From: Mustelus asterias
Taxonomy: Eukaryota
Assembly: GCF_964213995.1 (NCBI RefSeq)
Contig: NW_027590144.1
Location: 930,001-994,000, forward strand
Length of the DNA: 64,000 bases
Direction: 5' to 3'
In this document: piece by piece, positions 12,359-47,690 of the stretch
Layout of the letters: every line of letters starts with the position of its first letter
How positions within the stretch are numbered: the first letter of the stretch is position 1
Notes under the pieces: model-generated
What the model was told of the DNA's origin: nothing
Databases searched by the model: none
The model's input: the letters and a program-made list of their open reading frames with translations, nothing else
Program-made: the position numbers and the translations under genes

Positions 12359-13239
12359 TCAATTAAGGGGACAAGCCAACAGATTTCTCAACTGCTCCCT
12401 GAATTTCCCCTGGGTCACTGCATAAATGAATGTGTTTGTGCAGCAACTCAACAACTGAAGCATATTTGCACTTTCGCGAAGGATGAATTTGGCGTCACTG
12501 TATCCATTGATTTTAACATCCTTTGTAAATCGGTCATAAAAGAACTGTACAACATACGCCAACCACAAGAGGATGAAGCTACCTGAAATTGCAAACAGTA
12601 AAACAATGGACTTTCTTCTGTTCTCCATCTCTTTATCGCTCTTGTTCTCTCTATTGCTTTGGACTGTGAGTCTCCTGCGGGCTCTATTGGCCACAAGGAT
12701 GTGTCTGACGGTCAACACATTGAACAGAAGAATCATAACGAAAGAGAGGCATGGTGTTAAAATACGGTCAGTCCAATCAAACGCTGTCCACAAAGTCGAA
12801 GTATAACGAATGTCCTTTTGTCGGCAATACCAGGGGACATTGTCAAATATATAAATGGGTTCGTGTATAAAGTACCAAGGAATACTTTTCAGGAAACTTA
12901 AAAAACAAACCATTCCTATAACCACAGCTGCCATTTTTTCAGTGCAATATTTTGTTTTCAGCTTCTTGTAACAAATGGCCACAAATCGATCGAAGGTAAA
13001 AGCGACCGTTAACCAGACAGAACTGTCTCTTGCTGCATGAATTAAGGTGATGCTAAGACTGCAAACCGGAGTGATGGACAGAAAACTGCTGGGGAAATAA
13101 ATGCCAGGAATCCGGTTTATTATCACTGCGGTGACAATAACGAGCAGGTCAGTCACTGCCATGAAGACCAGATACCGAGTGATACACCTGGAGAGACCGC
13201 ACCTTCCTCGGTTCAGGATCACAATAGCCACCAAATTAA
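12359..13239 (-). CDS. GPR139-like class A GPCR, exon 2 (TM1 end to TM7)
   Basis: Acceptor ttcttgattacag ends at 13240; NLVAIVIL, MAVTDL, FTFDRFVAIC (DRY variant), IPWYF, CCTNTFIY (NPxxY variant). The ORF-track N-terminus MASVWSVFC... is intronic. Confidence 0.9.
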
Positions 13240-15084
13240 CTGTAATCAAGAAAAAGAGAGAGAGAGAGACTTTACAAAATACACTCCAAACAGAAGCCAT
13301 GTGCTTGTCTGGATTAGAGGTATCTCATAGTCGTGATGCTTGAAATGATTAAACAGAGACCATTGCAGGAAAACAAAGATATTTCAATGAATTAACATAA
13401 GTTCATTAAATATGCTTACGCATCAATATGTCAACACAGGCGATTATAGACTGGTGAAGAAAATATGTTAAAAAAACCATTTCATTGATATTTAAGATAT
13501 CTAGTTAACAGAACAGAATCAACAGAATGGCAACTGGAATTAAATTCAGAAGCACATTATAACAATTATAATAACGAATGGAACAAGCATGAGGGATACT
13601 GCAAAGGTACGATTCCAGAAACTAATATGAAGAGACCAGAGCCGTTTACATTGTGATGGCAATAGACCTTCCTTTTGGATGTGTCTTCATAGGCTTTATG
13701 GAGAAGATTGAAATACAAACCTCAGTGAGAATTACTAGACCTTCTTCAATACAATCCTTAGCTTCCAACCGAAATGCCGAAACGGAACATGACTTAGTAG
13801 CTTCTCATGTAAGAACTAAAGATCCTGCAACATAGCAATCTCTCAAAGCTTCCCAATATCGACCAAAAATATATATTCATGTCTTCAAGTAGGATTTTAA
13901 TTAATTAAGATGGATCTAAAAGAACGATGAACCGAAGTTACATATGACCGCTGGAAATAAATGCAGGATTTTTAACATGGGAACTTTCCGAGATTATATC
14001 CATAATCACGAGCTCAGAGGGACGGAAACTTCGACAAATCTTTCAGGTTTGTGCTTCCAAACAGAAGGTTGAGTGGACCGGCTGAAGTACTGACCATGAA
14101 CTGTCCTTGCGATAAAAGTAAGAAAATAGTCTCATGTTTGTTTCATCAATTTGAGAGAGGTTGATTGAAACAATTAGAGCGGGAAAATTCAAGGACGGCG
14201 CAAGCATCACAAAGACTATCCAAAGTGAATTTATTTCCAGCTGAAAATCCGAACAGTTGATAACTTTCAAAGAGAACAGAGATCAAAGCGGACTAAAGAA
14301 AGCAGAACATCGGGATGAATATTCCAGTAAATATGTGAATGCTGACACCTTCGGAGCTCAGATGGAGCAAAACACTATTAACTGCAATGTACCTGCAAAA
14401 CGTTCAACCCATAAAAGCAAAGGATAGTTTCATGTCTTACTTCATCAATGATAATTCGTTCATTCATTATGTATTTAGCTAAAACTTTGGTGATGAAATG
14501 TTTGGTTAATAAATATATGAAGGCGTATTTAGGAACCAAGACTCTAACTTAGTTGCATACTAAACCTAGCATATATGGTTCGGTACAAACAATGCCAATT
14601 TCATGTCATTTTGACAGCAACATGTATTATTTGTTTGTTCCTTTATTTCCATGCAATCTCTACAATGATGCCAATAGTTAATGCCGCTTTTCCTTTCTTC
14701 TGGCCTGTGCGGCTCTCAGTTAGACAGCTGGTCGCGTTCTGCAACAGGGATCACTCACAATATTTCGGACAGATTCACTTTAACGTTGGGCTGTATTTTA
14801 AATGACCAGTGGTGTTTCTATATGTCACAATGCCTATCTGCTGGAGGTCATGGCATTGCATTTCACAGACGCTGAACATTCTAAACACACAGTTTCATGA
14901 AACGGGAATTCAAAACCACAAGTCAGATAAACTATTCTCTTACCAATATACTCATGCACATTCTGCCTCAATTTGCCTCCCCGCTTCCATGTATGTTATT
15001 TCATTGGTTCACAAAACGCTTGGGCTGGAATGGTGGAGCGGGCTTGAGGGGCCAAATGTCAGAATAATTATATTATTTCCTATT

Positions 15085-33691: not shown

Positions 33692-34621
33692 ATGAGTGTG
33701 AAACCAGTGTGTTGTTCCCAGTGTAGGATGTGGGAGGTCCTGGAGGCATCTGGCCTCCCGGACATCCACATCTGTGAGGGGTGTGTCGAGCTGCGGTTCC
33801 TGAGGGACCGTGTTAGGGAGCTGGAACTGCAGCTCGAGGATCTTAGGCTGATGAGGGAGAATGAGGAGGTGATAGACAAGAGCTATCATCAGGTGGTCAC
33901 ACCAGGGCCACGGGAGGAGGCCAAGTGGGTGACGGCCAGGAAGGGTAAGGCTAGGGTGGTTGAGAGCACCCCGGTGGATTTGCCCCTGCACAACAAGTAC
34001 TCCTGCTTGAGTACTGCTGGGGGGGACAGCCCGCCTGGGGGAAGCAGCAGTGGCCGTGTCTCCGCAGTGGAGTCCAGCCCTGTAACTCAGAGGGCTAAGG
34101 AAAAGAGGAGGAAGGCGGTATTAATCGTGGACTCGATGGTGAAGGGAACAGACAGGCGTTTCTGCGGAGGTAGGCGAGATTCTCGCATGGTGGTCTGCCT
34201 CCCTGGGGCCGGGATCCAGGATGTCGCTAGTCGCGTCCCGGAAATCCTGAGGTGGGAGAGAGAGAAGCCTGAGGTAGCGGTACATATTGGTACCGCTGAT
34301 GTGGGTAGGAAGGGAGAAGGGGTCATGAAAAGGGAGTACAGGGAATTAGGGAGACAGCTGAGAAAGAGGAAAGCAAAGGTAGTAATCTCAGGATTACTGC
34401 CTGTGCCACGGGAAGGTGAGGGCAGGAATGGAGTGAGGTGGAGGATGCATGTGTGGCTGAGGGACTGGTGCAGGGGGCAGGGATTCAGGTTCCTGGATCA
34501 TTGGGACCTCTTTAGGGGCAGGGGTGATCTGTATACAAAAAACGGGTGGAACTTGAATCACACGGGGACCAATATCCTGGCCAGTAGGATGGCAAAGGCT
34601 ACTGGGGAGAATTTAAACTAG
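33692..34621 (+). CDS. CR1 ORF1 (Cys knuckle, coiled coil, esterase-like fold)
   Basis: MSVKPVCCSQC...CEGC; VCLPGA; VISGLLP; homologous to copy 1 ORF1. Confidence 0.9.
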   Translation: MSVKPVCCSQCRMWEVLEASGLPDIHICEGCVELRFLRDRVRELELQLEDLRLMRENEEVIDKSYHQVVTPGPREEAKWVTARKGKARVVESTPVDLPLHNKYSCLSTAGGDSPPGGSSSGRVSAVESSPVTQRAKEKRRKAVLIVDSMVKGTDRRFCGGRRDSRMVVCLPGAGIQDVASRVPEILRWEREKPEVAVHIGTADVGRKGEGVMKREYRELGRQLRKRKAKVVISGLLPVPREGEGRNGVRWRMHVWLRDWCRGQGFRFLDHWDLFRGRGDLYTKNGWNLNHTGTNILASRMAKATGENLN

Positions 34622-34626
34622 ATAGG

Positions 34627-37600
34627 TTGGGGGGAGGGGAGCTAGAAGAGTTGACTAGGATCAAGGAACTAATTGATGGGGGGGAGGATGCAGGGGTAAG
34701 GGGAAGTACAAAAATAATGGTAGAGGAGAGGGTGCAAGTGAATGAAGGCGGTAATTTAGGTAAGGGAGGAGAGGGAGTGGGTGTTCGCGACTCATCAAAG
34801 CGGGTCCAGATAAAAGCTGGAGTAAGGACACTTTGCCTGAATGCACGAAGCATTCGGAACAAGGTAAATGAGTTGATGGTGCAAATCAGCACAAGTGGGT
34901 ACGATCTGGTGGCCATTACAGAAACGTGGCTGAAAGGTGACCAGAACTGGGAGATGAATATCCAGGGGTATCAGGCGTTTAGGAAGGATAGACAGGAAGG
35001 AAAAGGTGGTGGGGTCGCGCTATTAATAAGAGATAATATCAGGGTAGTACTGAGGGATGGCATAGGCTCTGAGGAACAAAACGTGGAATCATTATGGGTA
35101 GAGATGAGGAATAGTAGGGGGAGAAAGACACTAGTAGGTGTGGTATATAGGCCTCCAAATAATAATGTTGAGGTAGGGAGGGCTATAAACAAGCAGATAA
35201 GGGATGCGTGTAAAAACGGAACGGCAATAATCATGGGGGACTTCAACATGCACATTGACTGGCAGACTCAAGTCGGTAAGGGTGGAATGGAGGAAGAGTT
35301 CTTAGAATGCTGTCGGGATAGTTTCCTTGAACAGCATGTTACGGAACCGACGAGGGAACGAGCTATTTTGGATCTGGTATTGTGTAACGAGGTAGGTAGA
35401 ATTAAGGATCTTATTGTGAAGGACCCTCTTGGGTCTAGTGACCACAATATGGTCGAATTTCTGATTCAGATGGAAGAGGAGAAAGTTTGGTCCCAAACCA
35501 GTGTCCTCTGTTTGAACAGAGGGAAATATGATAGGATGAGGGATGAATTGGCTAAGGTAGACTGGGAGAGCAGGCTGGCAGGTAGGATAGCTGAGGAACA
35601 GTGGAGGATTTTTAAGGAGATCCTTCTCAGTTCTCAGCAAAAACATATTCCAGCAAAAAACAAGGATTGTAAGAAAAGGGAGAACCAGCCGTGGATAACG
35701 AAGGAAATAAAGGAGAGTATTAAAATAAAAACAGCTGCGTACAGAGTGGCCAAAAATAGTGGAGAAACAAGTGATTGGGAAAAATTTCAGAAACAACAAA
35801 GAGAGACTAAGAAAGCGATAAAGAAAGGAAGGATAGACTATGAAGCTAGGCTAGCAATTAATATAAAAAATGATAGTAAAAGTTTTTATAAATATATAAA
35901 AAGGAATAGAGTGGCTAGAGTGAATGTTGGACCCTTGGAGGACGAGAGGGGGGAGTTAATAGTGGGAAATGAGGATATGGCTGAGTCTTTAAATAAGTTT
36001 TTTGTGTCGGTCTTCACGGTGGAGGACACAAATAGTTTGCCAAACATTAACGATAGAGGGTTGGCAGCAGGAGAAATACTTAATACAATTAATGTTACCA
36101 GAGAGGCAGTGCTGGGTAGACTAATGGGACTGAAGGTGGACAAGTCCCCGGGTCCGGATGGAATGCATCCCAGGGTATTGAAAGAAATGTCAGAGGTAAT
36201 AGTGGATGCGTTAGTGATTATTTATCAAAACTCGTTGCATTCTGGGGTAGTGCCGGTTGATTGGAAAACGGCTAATGTTACGCCGCTGTTTAAAAAAGGA
36301 AGGAGACAAAAGGCGGGTAACTATAGGCCGGTCAGCTTAACATCTGCAGTAGGGAAAATGCTGGAATCCATTATTAAAGAGGAGATAGCAGGGCATCTGG
36401 ATAGAAATGATTCGATCAATCAGACGCAGCATGGATTCATGAGGGGAAAGGCGTGCTTGACGCACATGTTGGATTTTTATGAAGATGTGACTAGGGCGGT
36501 TGATGGAGGAGAACCGGTGGATGCGGTGTTTTTGGATTTCCAAAAGGCGTTTGATAAGGTGCCCCATAAAAGGCTGCTGAAGAAGATTAGGGCACACGGA
36601 GTTGGGTGTAGTGTGTTAAAGTGGATTGGGGACTGGCTATCCGACAGGAAGCAAATAGTCGGAATAAATGGGTGTTTTTCCGGTTGGAGGAAGGTAACTA
36701 GTGGCGTGCCGCAGGGATCGGTACTCGGGCCGCAACTGTTTACCATTTATATGGATGATCTGGAGGAGGGGACGGACTGTAGGGTAACGAAGTTTGCAGA
36801 CGACACAAAGATAAGTGGAAAAGTGAATCGTGTGGAGGACGGAGAAGATCTGCAGAGAGATTTGGACAGGCTGAGTGAGTGGGCGAGGATATGGCAAATG
36901 GAGTATAACGTTGAGAAATGCGAGGTTATACACTTTGGAGGAAATAATAACAAAAGGGATTATTATCTCAATGGAAACAAATTAAAACATGCTACCGTGC
37001 AAAGGGACCTGGGGGTCCTTGTGCATGAGACGCAAAAGCCCAGTCTGCAGGTACAACAGGTGATCAAGAAGGCAAATGGGATGTTGGCCTATATCGCGAG
37101 GGGGATAGAATATAAAAGCAGGGATGTCTTGATGCACCTGTACAGGGCATTGGTGAGGCCGCAGCTGGAATACTGTGTGCAGTATTGGTCCCCTTATATG
37201 AGGAAGGATATATTGGCATTGGAGGGAGTGCAGAGAAGGTTCACCAGGTTGATACCGGAGATGAGGGGTTTGGATTATGAGGAGAGGCTGAGGAGATTGG
37301 GTTTGTCCTCGTTGGAGTTTAGAAGGATGAGGGGGGATCTTATGGAGACTTATAAGATAATGCGGGGGCTGGATAGGGTGGAGGCGGAGAGATTCTTTCC
37401 ACTTAGTAAGGAAGTTAAAACTAGAGGACACAGCCTCAAAATAAAGGGGGGTCGGTTTAAGACAGAGTTGAGGAGGAACTTCTTCTCCCAGAGGGTGGTG
37501 AATCTCTGGAATTCTCTGCCCACTGAGGTGGTGGAGGCTACCTCGCTGAATATGTTTAAAGCGCGGATGGATGGATTCCTGATCGGTAAGGGAATTAAGG

Positions 37601-37632
37601 GTTATGGGGATCAGGCGGGTAAGTGGTACTGA
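34627..37632 (+). CDS. CR1 ORF2: APE endonuclease + reverse transcriptase
   Basis: 1001-aa open frame; NARS, ITETW, GDFN, SDH, DFQKAFD, GVPQGS, FADD. Confidence 0.96.
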   Translation: MGGGELEELTRIKELIDGGEDAGVRGSTKIMVEERVQVNEGGNLGKGGEGVGVRDSSKRVQIKAGVRTLCLNARSIRNKVNELMVQISTSGYDLVAITETWLKGDQNWEMNIQGYQAFRKDRQEGKGGGVALLIRDNIRVVLRDGIGSEEQNVESLWVEMRNSRGRKTLVGVVYRPPNNNVEVGRAINKQIRDACKNGTAIIMGDFNMHIDWQTQVGKGGMEEEFLECCRDSFLEQHVTEPTRERAILDLVLCNEVGRIKDLIVKDPLGSSDHNMVEFLIQMEEEKVWSQTSVLCLNRGKYDRMRDELAKVDWESRLAGRIAEEQWRIFKEILLSSQQKHIPAKNKDCKKRENQPWITKEIKESIKIKTAAYRVAKNSGETSDWEKFQKQQRETKKAIKKGRIDYEARLAINIKNDSKSFYKYIKRNRVARVNVGPLEDERGELIVGNEDMAESLNKFFVSVFTVEDTNSLPNINDRGLAAGEILNTINVTREAVLGRLMGLKVDKSPGPDGMHPRVLKEMSEVIVDALVIIYQNSLHSGVVPVDWKTANVTPLFKKGRRQKAGNYRPVSLTSAVGKMLESIIKEEIAGHLDRNDSINQTQHGFMRGKACLTHMLDFYEDVTRAVDGGEPVDAVFLDFQKAFDKVPHKRLLKKIRAHGVGCSVLKWIGDWLSDRKQIVGINGCFSGWRKVTSGVPQGSVLGPQLFTIYMDDLEEGTDCRVTKFADDTKISGKVNRVEDGEDLQRDLDRLSEWARIWQMEYNVEKCEVIHFGGNNNKRDYYLNGNKLKHATVQRDLGVLVHETQKPSLQVQQVIKKANGMLAYIARGIEYKSRDVLMHLYRALVRPQLEYCVQYWSPYMRKDILALEGVQRRFTRLIPEMRGLDYEERLRRLGLSSLEFRRMRGDLMETYKIMRGLDRVEAERFFPLSKEVKTRGHSLKIKGGRFKTELRRNFFSQRVVNLWNSLPTEVVEATSLNMFKARMDGFLIGKGIKGYGDQAGKWY

Positions 37633-37971
37633 TCCACGTCAGATCAGCCATGATCTTATTGAATGGCGGGGCAGGCTCGAGGGGCTAGATGGCCTACTCC
37701 TGCTCCTGTTTCTTATGTTCTTATTTGCGGGGGAGGTGGTGGGTGCCTGGAACACGCCGCTGTTTTGGAAGCATGCACATTAGCAACATTTAAGAGGCGT
37801 CTGGATGGGTACCTGCAGGGAGTTTGTCTGCAACCCAGCCGGGAAAGTTTCCATTCATTAAGATGCAGCTCACCCCCGACAGGCTTCAGAGGACCGAGGT
37901 TTGTTGACGGTGGGAATGAGAAGGTCTGGTTGGAACTATGGTTCTGTGCTTTGTCTCTGTTCTATTTACAT

Positions 37972-44289: not shown

Positions 44290-46340
44290 TCAGCTCACAC
44301 ACACACTCTCTCTTANNNNNNNNNNNNNNNNNNNNNNNNNNNNNNNNNNNNNNNNNNNNNNNNNNNNNNNNNNNNNNNNNNNNNNNNNNNNNNNNNNNNN
44401 NNNNNNNNNNNNNNNNNNNNNNNNNNNNNNNNNNNNNNNNNNNNACATACTATCTCACACACGCACACACACTCTCTCTCACACACACACACACACTCTC
44501 TCTGTATCTCACCCGATGCTGTACCTGTCCTGGGTGTGTTTGATGTGTGGCAGCTTTTCCCTGTATCTATCCCCATGCTGTATCTGTCATTGGAATGTTT
44601 GATCGTCATGATGTGGAGATTTGATAGTTATTTGATAGTGACAGTGTAGAGGGAGCTTTACGCTGTATCTAACCCCGTGCTGTACCAGTCCTGTGTGTGT
44701 TTGATGGGGACAGTGTAGAGGGAGCTTTACTTTGCATCTCATCCCGTGTTTCAGTTACTGATAGACTTTCGAGGAAGATCAGGTCACACACACGCTCTCC
44801 TTACACACTCTCACACACACACACACACACATGCTCTCTCTGTCTCTCACACACACATACACTATCTCTTACGCACTCTCTCACACACACGCTCTTTCTC
44901 TCTGTCACACACACTTTCTCTCTCACACACATTCTCTCACACACACTTTCACGCTTGCACACTCTCACCCATGCATTCTCTCTCACTGACACACTCTCAC
45001 ACACATACACTCAGTCTCTCACACACACATACACTCACTCTCTCACACACATACACTCACTCTCTCACACAAACACTCACTCTCTGACACACATACACTC
45101 CCCTCTCACACACAAACACTCACTCTCTCACACATACACTCTCTCTCAAACATGCACTCTCTCACACACACACACACACTCTCACATACACACTCTCTCT
45201 CACGTACACGCTCTCTCTCATGTACACGCTCTCTCTCACGTACACGCTCTCTCTCACGCACACGCTCTCTCTCTCGCACATGCTCCCTTTTTCGCACACA
45301 CTCACTCTCTCTCGCACACACTCTCTCTCTCTCACGCACACTCTCTCTCACGCACACTCTNNNNNNNNNNNNNNNNNNNNNNNNNNNNNNNNNNNNNNNN
45401 NNNNNNNNNNNNNNNNNNNNNNNNNNNNNNNNNNNNNNNNNNNNNNNNNNNNNNNNNNNNNNNNNNNNNNNNNNNNNNNNNNNNNNNNNNNNNNNNNNNN
45501 NNNNNNNNNNNNNTCACGCACACGCGCTCTCTCTCACACACTCTCTCGCACAGTCTCTTTCTCACACACACTCTCTCACACACACACACTCTCTCTCGCA
45601 CACACTCTCTCTCACACACACACTCTCTCTCTCGCACACGTTCTCTCTCTCGCACACACTCTCTCTCACACACACACACTTTCTGACACACTCTCTCGCA
45701 NNNNNNNNNNNNNNNNNNNNNNNNNNNNNNNNNNNNNNNNNNNNNNNNNNNNNNNNNNNNNNNNNNNNNNNNNNNNNNNNNNNNNNNNNNNNNNNNNNNN
45801 NNNNNNNNNNNNNNNNNNNNNNNNNNNNNNNNNNNNNNNNNNNNNNNNNNNNNNNNNNNNNNNNNNNNNNNNNNNNNNNNNNNNNNNNNNNNNNNNNNNN
45901 NNNTCTCGCACTCACTCTCTCTCTCGCACACGTTCTCTCTCTCACACACACTCTCTCTCTCACACACACACTTTCTGACACACTCTCTCGCACACACACT
46001 CTCTCTCACACACACTCTCTCTCACACACACATTCTCTCACACACACTCTCTCTCTCTCACTCTCTCACACANNNNNNNNNNNNNNNNNNNNNNNNNNNN
46101 NNNNNNNNNNNNNNNNNNNNNNNNNNNNNNNNNNNNNNNNNNNNNNNNNNNNNNNNNNNNNNNNNNNNNNNNNNNNNNNNNNNNNNNNNNNNNNNNNNNN
46201 NNNNNNNNNNNNNNNNNNNNNNNNNNNNCTCTCTCTCTCTCGCACACACTCTCTCTCTCACACAATCTCTCTCACACACACATACAGATACACACTCTCT
46301 CTCACACACACACACATTCTCTCTCACACACACACACACA
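44290..46340. repeat. Compound (CA)n/(CT)n low-complexity region with N gaps and a few 69-bp satellite units (about 44500-44750)
   Basis: Direct inspection. Confidence 0.9.
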
Positions 46341-47690
46341 ATGATGGGGCAAAATGTAGAGGAAGATTTGAGCTGTATCTATCCCCGTGCTGTACCTGTC
46401 CTGGGTGTGTTTGATGGGGACAGTATGGAGGGAGCTTTACTCTGTATCTATCCCCGTGCTGTACCTGTCCTGGGTGTGTTTGATGGGGACAGTGGTGAGG
46501 GAGCTTCACTCCGGATCTAAACCCGTGCTGTACATGTCCTGGGAGTGTTTGATGGGGATAGTGTAGAGGGAGCTTTACTCTGTATCTAACCCTGTGCTGT
46601 ATATGTCCTGGGAGTGTTTGATGAGGACAGTGAAGTGGGCGCTTTACTCTGTATCTAACCACTTGCTGTATCTCTCCTGGGAGTGTTTGATGGGGACAGT
46701 GTCGAGGGAGCTTCACTCTGTATCTCACCCCGTGCTGTATCTGTTCTGGGAGTGTTTGATGGGGACAGTGTAGAGGGAGATTTACTCTGTATCTAATCCC
46801 GTGCTGTACCTGTCCTTGGTTTGTCTGATGGGGATATTGTAGAGGGAGCTTTACTCTGTATCTCACCCCGTGCTGTATCTGTTCTTGGAGTGTTTGATGG
46901 GGACAGTGCAGAGGGAGCTTTACTCTGTATCTAAGCCATGCTGTCCCTGTTCTGGGAGTGTTTGATGGGGACAGTATCGAAGGAGCTTTACTCTGTATCT
47001 AACCCGTGCTGTACCTGTCCTGGGCGAGTTTGTTGGGGACAGTGCAGAGGGTGCTTTACTCTATATCTAACCCCGTGCTGTATCTGTTCTGGGACTGTTT
47101 GATGGGGACAGTGTTAAGTGAGCGTTACTCTGTATCTAACCCCGTGCTGTACCTGTCCTGGGAGTGTTTGATGGGGACAGAGTAGAGGGAGCTTTACACT
47201 GTATCTAACCCCGTGCTGTATCTGTCCTGGGTGTGTTGGATGGGGACAGTGTAAAGGGAGCTTTACTCTGTATCGAACCCCGTGCTGTATCTGTCCTGGG
47301 AGTGTTTGATGGGGGCAGGCTAGAAGGAACTTTACTCTGTATCTAACTCCGTGCTGTATCTGTCCTGGGAGTGTTTGATGGGGACAGTGTAGAGGAAGCT
47401 TTACTCTGTACCTAACCCCGTGCTGTACCTGTCCTGGGAGTGTTTGATGGGGACAGTGGAGAGGGAGCTTTACTCTGTATCGAACCCCATGCTGTATTTG
47501 TCCTGGGAGTGTTTGATGGGGGCAGTCTAGAAGGAACTTTACTCTGTATCTAACTCTGTGCTGTACCTGTCCTGGGAGTGTTTGATGGGGGACAGTGTAG
47601 AGGGAGCTTTACTCTGTATGTACCCCCGTGCTGTATCTGTCCTGGGGGTGTTTGATGGGGACAGTGTAGAGGGAGGTTTTCTCTGCATCG
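46340..47690. repeat. 69-bp tandem satellite, about 19-20 units
   Basis: Unit ctgtatctaaccccgtgctgtacctgtcctgggagtgtttgatggggacagtgtagagggagctttact; period from 46382 to 46451. Confidence 0.95.

Follow-up and report, generated by a model that had tools for sequence, protein, structure and literature searches.

How do ribosomes reach ORF2 of a CR1 retrotransposon when ORF1 ends in a different, overlapping frame? The element E1 raises this question in the window, the whole 64-kb stretch of DNA analysed here. A sequence-only reading had proposed a -1 frameshift at a slippery heptamer.

Layout of the E1 element

E1 is a CR1 LINE of full length with slight decay, and its nearest named matches point to a cartilaginous fish as the host. 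Its features are as follows.

33692..34621, plus strand: ORF1, 309 aa, SGNH esterase type (PF13472 match, E 2.9e-9)
34612..34618, plus strand: slippery heptamer U_UUA_AAC, formed by the last base of an Asn codon and the Leu and Asn codons of ORF1
34619..34621, plus strand: stop codon TAG of ORF1, adjoining the heptamer
34629..34639, plus strand: G-tract (G6, A, G4), candidate 3' stimulator, core at +11 to +14/+15
34612..37632, plus strand: ORF2 in the -1 frame, 1006 codons counted from the heptamer (ORF list, Pfam matches)
34717..34719, plus strand: first in-frame ATG of ORF2, located ahead of the endonuclease, where translation might re-initiate
37633..37724, plus strand: 3' UTR, with a tail of short TTCTTATG-type repeats at its end

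E1 shows the ORF1 organization of the CR1 clade. A Cys motif (C-X2-C-X16-C-X2-C) is followed by a long helix (coiled coil), a disordered linker and the SGNH esterase. The structure model of a relative, P0002, also backs this architecture, and a profile built from ORF1 relatives matches 4C1B (E 8.9e-40). The esterase of the E1 copy is probably inactive, because the GDS motif reads VDS and block V has lost its D..H.

ORF2 begins with a linker of about 75 codons. It is followed by an APE-type endonuclease, whose first motif lies near 34840, and by a reverse transcriptase (about 36298-36945). The Pfam matches PF03372, PF14529 and PF00078 identify these two domains, which are those of the CR1 clade. 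A tail of short repeats without poly(A) is a CR1 hallmark. E1 has such a tail of TTCT..TG-type repeats at 37710-37724, as do E2 (the second CR1 of the window) and L002. In an ORF1 esterase tree of 55 rows, E1 and E2 cluster with turtle, squamate and bird ORF1s (SH-aLRT 98); this is a quick tree, with long-branch warnings on the readthrough rows.

The junction between ORF1 and ORF2

The heptamer is observed where the earlier reading had placed it. TTTAAAC occupies 34612-34618 in the U_UUA_AAC phase, and TAG comes immediately after. The -1 frame is indeed open into ORF2, with no stop from 34588 to 37632 (1014 codons, stop to stop). The ORF2 length, given before as 1001 aa, has to be corrected to the 1006 codons listed above. 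The absence of a start ATG in ORF2 holds for its very start and fails further on, where an in-frame ATG occurs 99 nt past the heptamer (34717). This ATG precedes the first endonuclease motif (+222) and follows out-of-frame ATGs at +58 and +70. For the E1 copy, the argument from a missing ATG is weak. An overlapping UAAUG stop-start is absent at E1, which reads TAG ATA there.

A single TTTAAAC match means little, because the heptamer occurs 21 times in the window, counting both strands. Nevertheless, both CR1s of the window that bear an ORF1 carry it at the last ORF1 codons. The features of E2 are as follows.

3701..3707, minus strand: heptamer, same as in E1, at the end of ORF1, followed by TGA (3698-3700)
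3684..3694, minus strand: G11 run, spanning +7 to +17

Given the codon usage of each of five elements, an x-Leu-Asn end would be spelled T TTA AAC by chance with a probability of 0.003-0.042 per element.

ORF2 could also be expressed from a separate RNA (by splicing or an internal promoter), or through polymerase slippage in transcription. Either leaves the phase-locked site for tRNA re-pairing unexplained, and slippage in the G-run cannot bypass the stop because the G-run lies behind it. Nothing in the sequences analysed spoke for either of them, and we give these explanations practically no weight.

Conservation of the heptamer among CR1 elements

We compared the ends of ORF1 among related elements. 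The survey agrees with the expectation of a conserved site: the exact heptamer is present in 10 of the 12 junctions, despite divergent ORF1s, and L005 and L006 are one base off. Among the E1, E2, L001 and L008/L010 types, ORF1 identity is 23-44% (44% between E1 and E2). Fourfold-degenerate third positions agree in 15/42 cases for E1/E2, 9/36 for E1/L001 and 4/16 for E2/L008, with a higher value for E1/L008 (12/21). By these counts, synonymous sites among these ORF1s are largely saturated, and the heptamer is still kept at the DNA level.

The conservation might be due to the protein or to chance. In this case, the C-terminus of the esterase would need Leu-Asn, and the heptamer, the frame and the G-run would be inherited by-products. 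The last residues do close the final esterase helix in the model (H290-308). However, TTA makes up 3-37% of the Leu codons in these elements, yet the same codons are kept. The fold itself has no need for Leu-Asn, because the solved ZfL2-1 esterase (of the 4C1B type, without LN) can be aligned up to position 307 of 311 and L2-like relatives have other end residues.

The protein tails give a similar picture. The LN ending occurs in 21 of 29 close ORF1 homologues. Among all ORF1 tails (94 of 179 proteins were scorable), we counted 62 LN, 7 GN, 1 KN and 2 EN. All seven GN endings are QGN, compatible with G_GGA_AAC, a type covered here at the protein level. At the position before LN, residues with T-ending codons replace one another freely. 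A residue that cannot have such a codon stands there in only 1 of 53 distinct tails; for positions nearby, the figure is 73 of 424 (Fisher p 0.002, kinship of the tails ignored). From these sequences, the heptamer is conserved beyond what the protein needs. The tail, codon and junction comparisons largely refute the explanation by protein constraint or chance, which we regard as highly improbable.

The named hosts of LN-ending ORF1s are skates, rays, a shark, an eel, a turtle, squamates and a swallow. The larger scans gave at least 96 loci, many of which are bacterial SGNH hydrolases without bearing on the question. The genome-contig scan gave at least 16 loci; among the matches listed, L081 alone has an ORF2 match. 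No relative turned up in three scans of viral contigs. The DNA comparison includes one lineage outside the vertebrate-type elements.

The ORF2 frame in related elements

Had the ORF2 frame been random across CR1 families, the proposal would have lost its ground. It is not random. In 5 of 8 junctions (E1, L001, L002, L008 and L015), no stop interrupts the -1 frame between the heptamer and the endonuclease. It is closed in E2, L013 and L042, the last two of which are decayed. Likewise, 5 of the 7 database proteins with F-K-L at the junction run through into the endonuclease. A sister lineage has ORF2 in frame after TGA-CTA/CCA, and there ORF2 is likely reached by TGA readthrough.

The accepted route in L1 and SART1 is different (PMC2881922, PMC5009743, PMC3894237). 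Following it, ribosomes would terminate at TAG and begin ORF2 anew at an AUG or non-AUG codon further downstream, with the heptamer and the G-run belonging to a re-initiation signal. An in-frame ATG does lie ahead of the endonuclease in E1 (+99), E2 (+55), L002 (+6) and L008 (+60), and 3 of 5 database proteins also have an in-frame Met there. Restart would account for the two intact ORFs of E2 in frame 0 as well. On the other hand, the position of the ATG is not conserved, and out-of-frame ATGs come earlier in E1, E2 and L008. In L001, P0226 and P0227, no ATG precedes the endonuclease; L015 also has no in-frame Met ahead of it. Restart explains neither why the -1 linker is free of stops nor why the X_XXY_YYZ pattern persists while X varies. 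We consider it unlikely, although it is the strongest of the alternatives.

The earlier proposal of a gag-pol-like fusion in place of L1-like re-initiation gains comparative support. It comes from the heptamer kept at the DNA level, the ends that fit alternative slippery heptamers, the open linkers and the families without Met.

The G-run and the search for a stimulator

The G-rich tract had been placed 6-10 nt past the heptamer. Its actual place is +11, constant across junctions. In E1, a 10-nt spacer separates the heptamer from the G6 run (34629-34634), which starts at +11; A and GGGG come next. G occupies +11 to +15 in 10 of 11 junctions. All 6 of the 6 lineage representatives have GGGG at +11, compared with a per-position background of 0.004-0.025; the count is partly circular, since the 16 hand-picked loci had first been filtered for GGGG no more than 33 nt from a heptamer, at any position. 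The sense strands of CR1 are G-rich (GC skew 0.35-0.43), which would favor a by-product. Against this, the Gs at +11 and +14 fall on third codon positions of the -1 frame.

A canonical -1 site has a stem-loop or pseudoknot about 5-9 nt downstream. We found no conserved local hairpin 3' of the heptamer in 8 junctions (z from -1.07 to +1.68). Neither was there a shared long-range pairing partner in 7 junctions, whose best partners lie at differing places. The usual structural stimulator thus appears to be missing. A universal G-quadruplex was rejected, being predicted in only 3 of 8 junctions (E1, E2 and L002). No Rfam family matched the element at E up to 1. We observed a weak recurrence of a long-range partner near -430 in 4 of the 7 junctions.

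A model for ORF2 expression

We think it probable that -1 ribosomal frameshifting yields a 1313-aa ORF1-ORF2 fusion in E1. Most ribosomes would translate ORF1 and terminate at TAG, giving the esterase-type ORF1p. A minority would slip one base back, so that tRNA-Leu moves from UUA to UUU and tRNA-Asn from AAC to AAA. These ribosomes would bypass TAG and continue in the -1 frame. The putative product is a single ORF1-linker-endonuclease-RT protein of 309 + 1004 = 1313 residues. The frequency of slipping would then fix a low ratio of enzyme to ORF1p.

Two features probably make the ribosome pause in combination: the stop codon adjoining the shift site and the G-run at +11. The position of the G-run is observed; for its role, we infer a protein-binding site as most likely, with a G-quadruplex or distant pairing less so.

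The comparisons suggest that in sharks, reptiles and birds the copying enzyme of CR1 arises as a fusion protein, as in retroviruses but not in human LINE-1. A wider proposal is tentative, and we would rather doubt it than hold it. All LINEs with an esterase ORF1 might make their endonuclease-RT as a recoded fusion. In CR1, a protein (a host G-run binder or ORF1p) would trigger the -1 shift in trans at the G-run 11 nt downstream, and the sister branch would use UGA readthrough. If true, a cellular retroelement would use a frameshift that is stimulated by a protein and has persisted from sharks to birds, and host or element would have a dial on RT output.

Comparison with known systems

U_UUA_AAC is a coronaviral -1 site, as stated before; IBV is an example (PMC5009743). 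CR1 shares the heptamer and its phase with retroviral and coronaviral sites, where a structural ORF is also joined to a polymerase ORF in the -1 frame. However, CR1 is a non-LTR retrotransposon, its stop adjoins the heptamer, and we found no conserved local hairpin or long-range partner.

Another likeness is to PRRSV, whose frameshift is stimulated by nsp1beta/PCBP at CCCANCUCC, 11 nt 3' of the shift site (PMC5009743). The CR1 motif is likewise short and unstructured, at exactly the same distance, but it is G-rich whereas that of PRRSV is C-rich. Frameshifting stimulated by G-quadruplexes (PMC12809536, PMC5009743) also has a G-rich stretch just 3' of the shift site. In contrast, the conserved core in CR1 is a single G-run.

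As for retroelements, L1 and SART1 are also bicistronic LINE RNAs with low ORF2 output (PMC2881922, PMC3894237). Their ORF2p is a separate protein, whereas the two ORFs of CR1 meet at a slippery site, where they overlap in the -1 frame without UAAUG. ZfL2-1 shares the coiled coil and SGNH esterase of ORF1 (PMC3905857, PDB 4C1B), and the main text of its paper contains neither "frameshift" nor "readthrough". Penelope-like elements are target-primed retroelements in which a frameshift lies between the RT and an upstream ORF (PMC8557442). However, they belong to another class, and a pseudoknot is named there.

The translation of LINE ORF2 is treated as an open question in a review that lists re-initiation, IRES and 2A routes; an ORF1-ORF2 frameshift does not appear among the routes it names (PMC3894237). 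A CR1 frameshift is unreported in the literature searched, a search that the CR1/SART1 papers of 1997-2005 lie beyond. In the chicken genome model, CR1 accounts for 11.8% (PMC11835228). If the fusion is real, the true ORF2 protein carries a coiled coil and a membrane-binding esterase, which could tether the enzyme to the ORF1p particle. Annotations placing the ORF2 start at the first ATG would then be mistaken, and frameshifting would have a stimulator of a new kind, a short G motif without structure.

The second CR1 of the window

E2 departs from the pattern in its ORF2 frame. Its ORF2 (3697-827, minus strand) lies in frame 0, shifted by one base relative to sister families, and follows the TGA in frame. 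The -1 frame closes after 12 codons. The E2 family is known here from one DNA copy.

Both routes could be in use, or the E2 family could have switched to TGA readthrough in frame 0. The 956 codons without further stop after the TGA fit this possibility, as does the in-frame TGA-CTA/CCA of the sister lineages. The stop context, however, is TGA TTC rather than TGA C(T/C)A, and the heptamer and G-run are retained. Furthermore, P0224, P0226 and P0227, the closest relatives of E2 found, read F-K-L straight into the endonuclease, and E2 goes one base off across its 11-G run. We therefore judge a dual route or a switch to be very unlikely, and frameshifting remains our preferred reading. The A after the G-run was considered as a sign of an extra base in E2 and was discarded, since A occupies +22 in E1, E2, L008 and L010 alike. 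Among the runs listed, 20 of 23 (13 studies) contain the stretch or part of it.

The junction between ORF1 and ORF2 of E1

The window holds two full-length CR1 LINEs, E1 and E2. The remaining CR1 pieces in it carry no ORF1.

Features of E1 and E2 at and around the junction
In the window, + strand: E1, full-length LINE with ORF1 and ORF2
33692-34621, + strand: E1 ORF1, 309 aa, SGNH esterase
34612-34618, + strand: E1 heptamer TTTAAAC, phase U_UUA_AAC, stop directly adjoining
34588-37632, + strand: E1 -1 frame, open, 1006 codons counted from the heptamer
34629-34634, + strand: E1 run of six G, starting 11 nt past the heptamer
827-4627, - strand: E2, second full-length CR1, both ORFs intact
3707-3698, - strand: heptamer and stop at the end of E2 ORF1

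ORF1 of E1 ends AAT TTA AAC TAG, which sets the heptamer in the phase U_UUA_AAC, exactly as the sequence-only reading had described. The -1 frame is open into an ORF2 with APE endonuclease and reverse transcriptase domains, also as claimed, although it spans 1006 codons from the heptamer and not 1001 aa. The G-rich tract is present too, but 11 nt past the heptamer instead of 6-10. ORF2 had been said to lack a starting ATG. This needs correction: an in-frame ATG lies at +99 (nt 3' of the heptamer), before the first endonuclease motif (+222). Two out-of-frame ATGs, at +58 and +70, precede it.

At the TAG, the majority of ribosomes would terminate. A minority would slip from UUA AAC to UUU AAA and continue past the stop, giving a fusion of 1313 residues (309 + 1004). 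We consider it likely that -1 frameshifting yields this ORF1-ORF2 fusion.

The nearest named relatives come from rays, skates and a shark, suggesting a cartilaginous fish as host. The E1 esterase has lost the G of GDS as well as the catalytic residues D and H; the closest relative retains them. E1 ORF1 is in-frame and intact; in the esterase tree its branch is much longer than that of the closest relative.

Conservation of the ORF1 end

Leu-Asn (LN) is the C-terminus in 21 of 29 close ORF1 homologues. A further search, against cluster representatives, added 150 listed matches of 1265, for a pooled set of 179 proteins. Of these 179, 94 show the final esterase motif together with a tail of 20-45 residues: 62 end in LN, 7 in GN, 2 in EN, 1 in KN and 22 otherwise. 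The residue preceding LN takes 12 different values. E, Q, K, M and W, the residues without a T-ending codon, stand there in 1 of 53 distinct tails, compared with 73 of 424 across positions -4 to -11 (p 0.002 in a test that ignores relatedness). All seven GN ends, known from protein alone, read Q-G-N, which can be spelled CAG GGA AAC. The available part of PMC5009743 counts U_UUA_AAC, G_GGA_AAC and A_AAA_AAC among the most shift-prone heptamers.

Seven of ten proteins looked up carry a name, and the named ones that end in LN belong to a snake, a lizard, a tegu, the Komodo dragon, a turtle, a swallow and an eel. The alignment of the ZfL2-1 esterase structure (4C1B) extends to position 307 of 311, and other C-terminal residues are found in L2-like relatives, so the esterase fold does not need Leu-Asn. 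Inside the slippery branch, six proteins (P0094, P0151, P0118, P0148, P0123 and P0155) show F-F-R, E-N or S-N. Seen as proteins alone, these ends may be further shift-site variants.

Junction DNA and the -1 frame in relatives

Scans for relatives yielded at least 80 metagenome and at least 16 genome loci, many of them bacterial hydrolases or ending short of the junction. Heptamer-type junctions numbered 12 among the loci listed (10 loci, E1 and E2). They came from ORF1 stops, from 16 hand-picked candidates screened for GGGG within 33 nt, and by eye (L005, L017). The heptamer proved conserved in this survey, exact in 10 of the 12. Positions +11 to +15 are all G in 10 of the 11 junctions reaching that far, and +6 to +10 vary. 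The GGGG background in linkers is 0.004-0.025 per position. Synonymous sites are largely saturated among E1, E2, L001 and the bird-type loci, and the chance of x-Leu-Asn being written T TTA AAC is 0.003-0.042 per element. The CR1 junction signal is real and conserved.

An unbroken -1 frame leads from the heptamer to the endonuclease in E1, L001, L002, L008 and L015; E2, L013 and L042 lack one. Seven database proteins read F-K-L across the junction, five extending to the endonuclease motif, and all seven have Gly at the codon over +12 to +14. Presumably each stems from a gene model or element copy that carries an indel. In two stingray gene models, P0024 and P0221, an intact ORF1 passes straight on to the linker and endonuclease of the -1 frame, as it would if frameshifting were hard-wired; the annotation of one as 'hydroxyacid oxidase 2 isoform' is apparently mistaken. 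In L081 (2490-2630), a LINE in a bacterial genome bin (probably of host origin), ORF2 is open for more than 1000 codons and overlaps, in the -1 frame, roughly the last 45 codons of ORF1. The shift site there may be a G_AAT_TTT stretch close to where the overlap begins.

Re-initiation could supply ORF2 instead, since ATGs exist and L1 can dispense with one (PMC5009743, available part). An in-frame Met precedes the endonuclease in E1, E2, L002, L008 and three of the five endonuclease-reaching F-K-L proteins; L001, L015, P0226 and P0227 have none. However, re-initiation leaves the heptamer, its apparent covariation and the open linker unexplained, and we regard it as improbable.

E2 is the chief result against the frameshift reading. 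Its ORF1 is 44% identical to that of E1 and 11 G's span +7 to +17, but ORF2 is in frame 0 and the -1 frame closes after 12 codons. In the three database proteins nearest its ORF2 start (P0224, P0226, P0227), F-K-L leads directly into the endonuclease, and the E2 register is one base off theirs. The simplest account is that the G-run gained a base, through mutation or an error of assembly, in a family whose DNA is known from one copy. Runs filed under six organism codes contain at least 0.9 of the sampled words of the E2 junction region. This may point to a young family present in several species, or to related samples.

Candidate stimulator

No canonical structured stimulator was seen at the junctions analysed. 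In none of 8 junctions did the 90 nt 3' of the stop fold better than shuffled sequence (z -1.07 to +1.68), no long-range partner recurred convincingly among 7 elements (several were partial), and Rfam gave zero matches. A G-quadruplex is predicted in three of eight junctions. The conserved 3' feature is a single short G-run at a fixed distance. In the available part of PMC5009743, the PRRSV motif bound by nsp1beta and PCBP also lies 11 nt from the shift site, but is C-rich. We favor the CR1 G-run as a putative protein-bound stimulator, which would act together with pausing at the adjoining stop.

A candidate readthrough counterpart in the sister branch

A quick maximum-likelihood tree built from 106 esterase rows puts the LN, GN, EN and KN ends together to one side of its root (89 rows, SH-aLRT 96). 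The opposite side, less sure owing to long branches, has 17 rows, including 11 loci with ORF2 mostly in frame after the ORF1 stop. Among the loci listed, TGA is followed by CTA or CCA in 16 of 21 from this branch; UGA-CUA is a leaky-stop context. The endonuclease motif was located in 14: 11 in frame 0 (10 without a further stop), two in -1 and one in +1. The loci come mostly from a single cluster of related families; L014, which has TGA CTA, represents a second lineage.

Sister-branch examples with in-frame ORF2 (locus:position)
L014:2733
L018:2165
L021:833
L023:4207
L027:743
L029:1759
L057:415
Others

The ORF1 stop is here a candidate for programmed readthrough. Together, the two branches suggest that ORF1-ORF2 fusion by recoding may be general in esterase-ORF1 LINEs.

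Previous reports and other features

For certain insect LINEs whose ORFs overlap, frameshifting was proposed earlier; the CR1 overlap may have drawn remark in the same period. An earlier brief mention is possible, at a little under even chances. The literature searched, which lies outside the original 1997-2003 CR1 descriptions, gave no report of a CR1 frameshift. There is none in the available parts of PMC5009743, PMC2881922, PMC1965478, PMC3905857, PMC8557442, PMC5408684, PMC11835228, PMC3894237 and PMC12809536; the term 'CR1' is absent from the first 300,000 of the 449,034 characters of PMC5009743. The mechanism would be a known one found in a new setting; its candidate stimulator is unusual, and a sister lineage has a candidate counterpart in readthrough.

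Elsewhere in the window, long CA/CT microsatellite tracts (59640-64000 and 44700-46500) produce long ORFs that are spurious, and from ~63050 there is a gap of Ns. A single-exon rhodopsin-family GPCR ORF of 321 codons (12359-13324, - strand; PF00001, E 7.4e-21) lies amid repeats.
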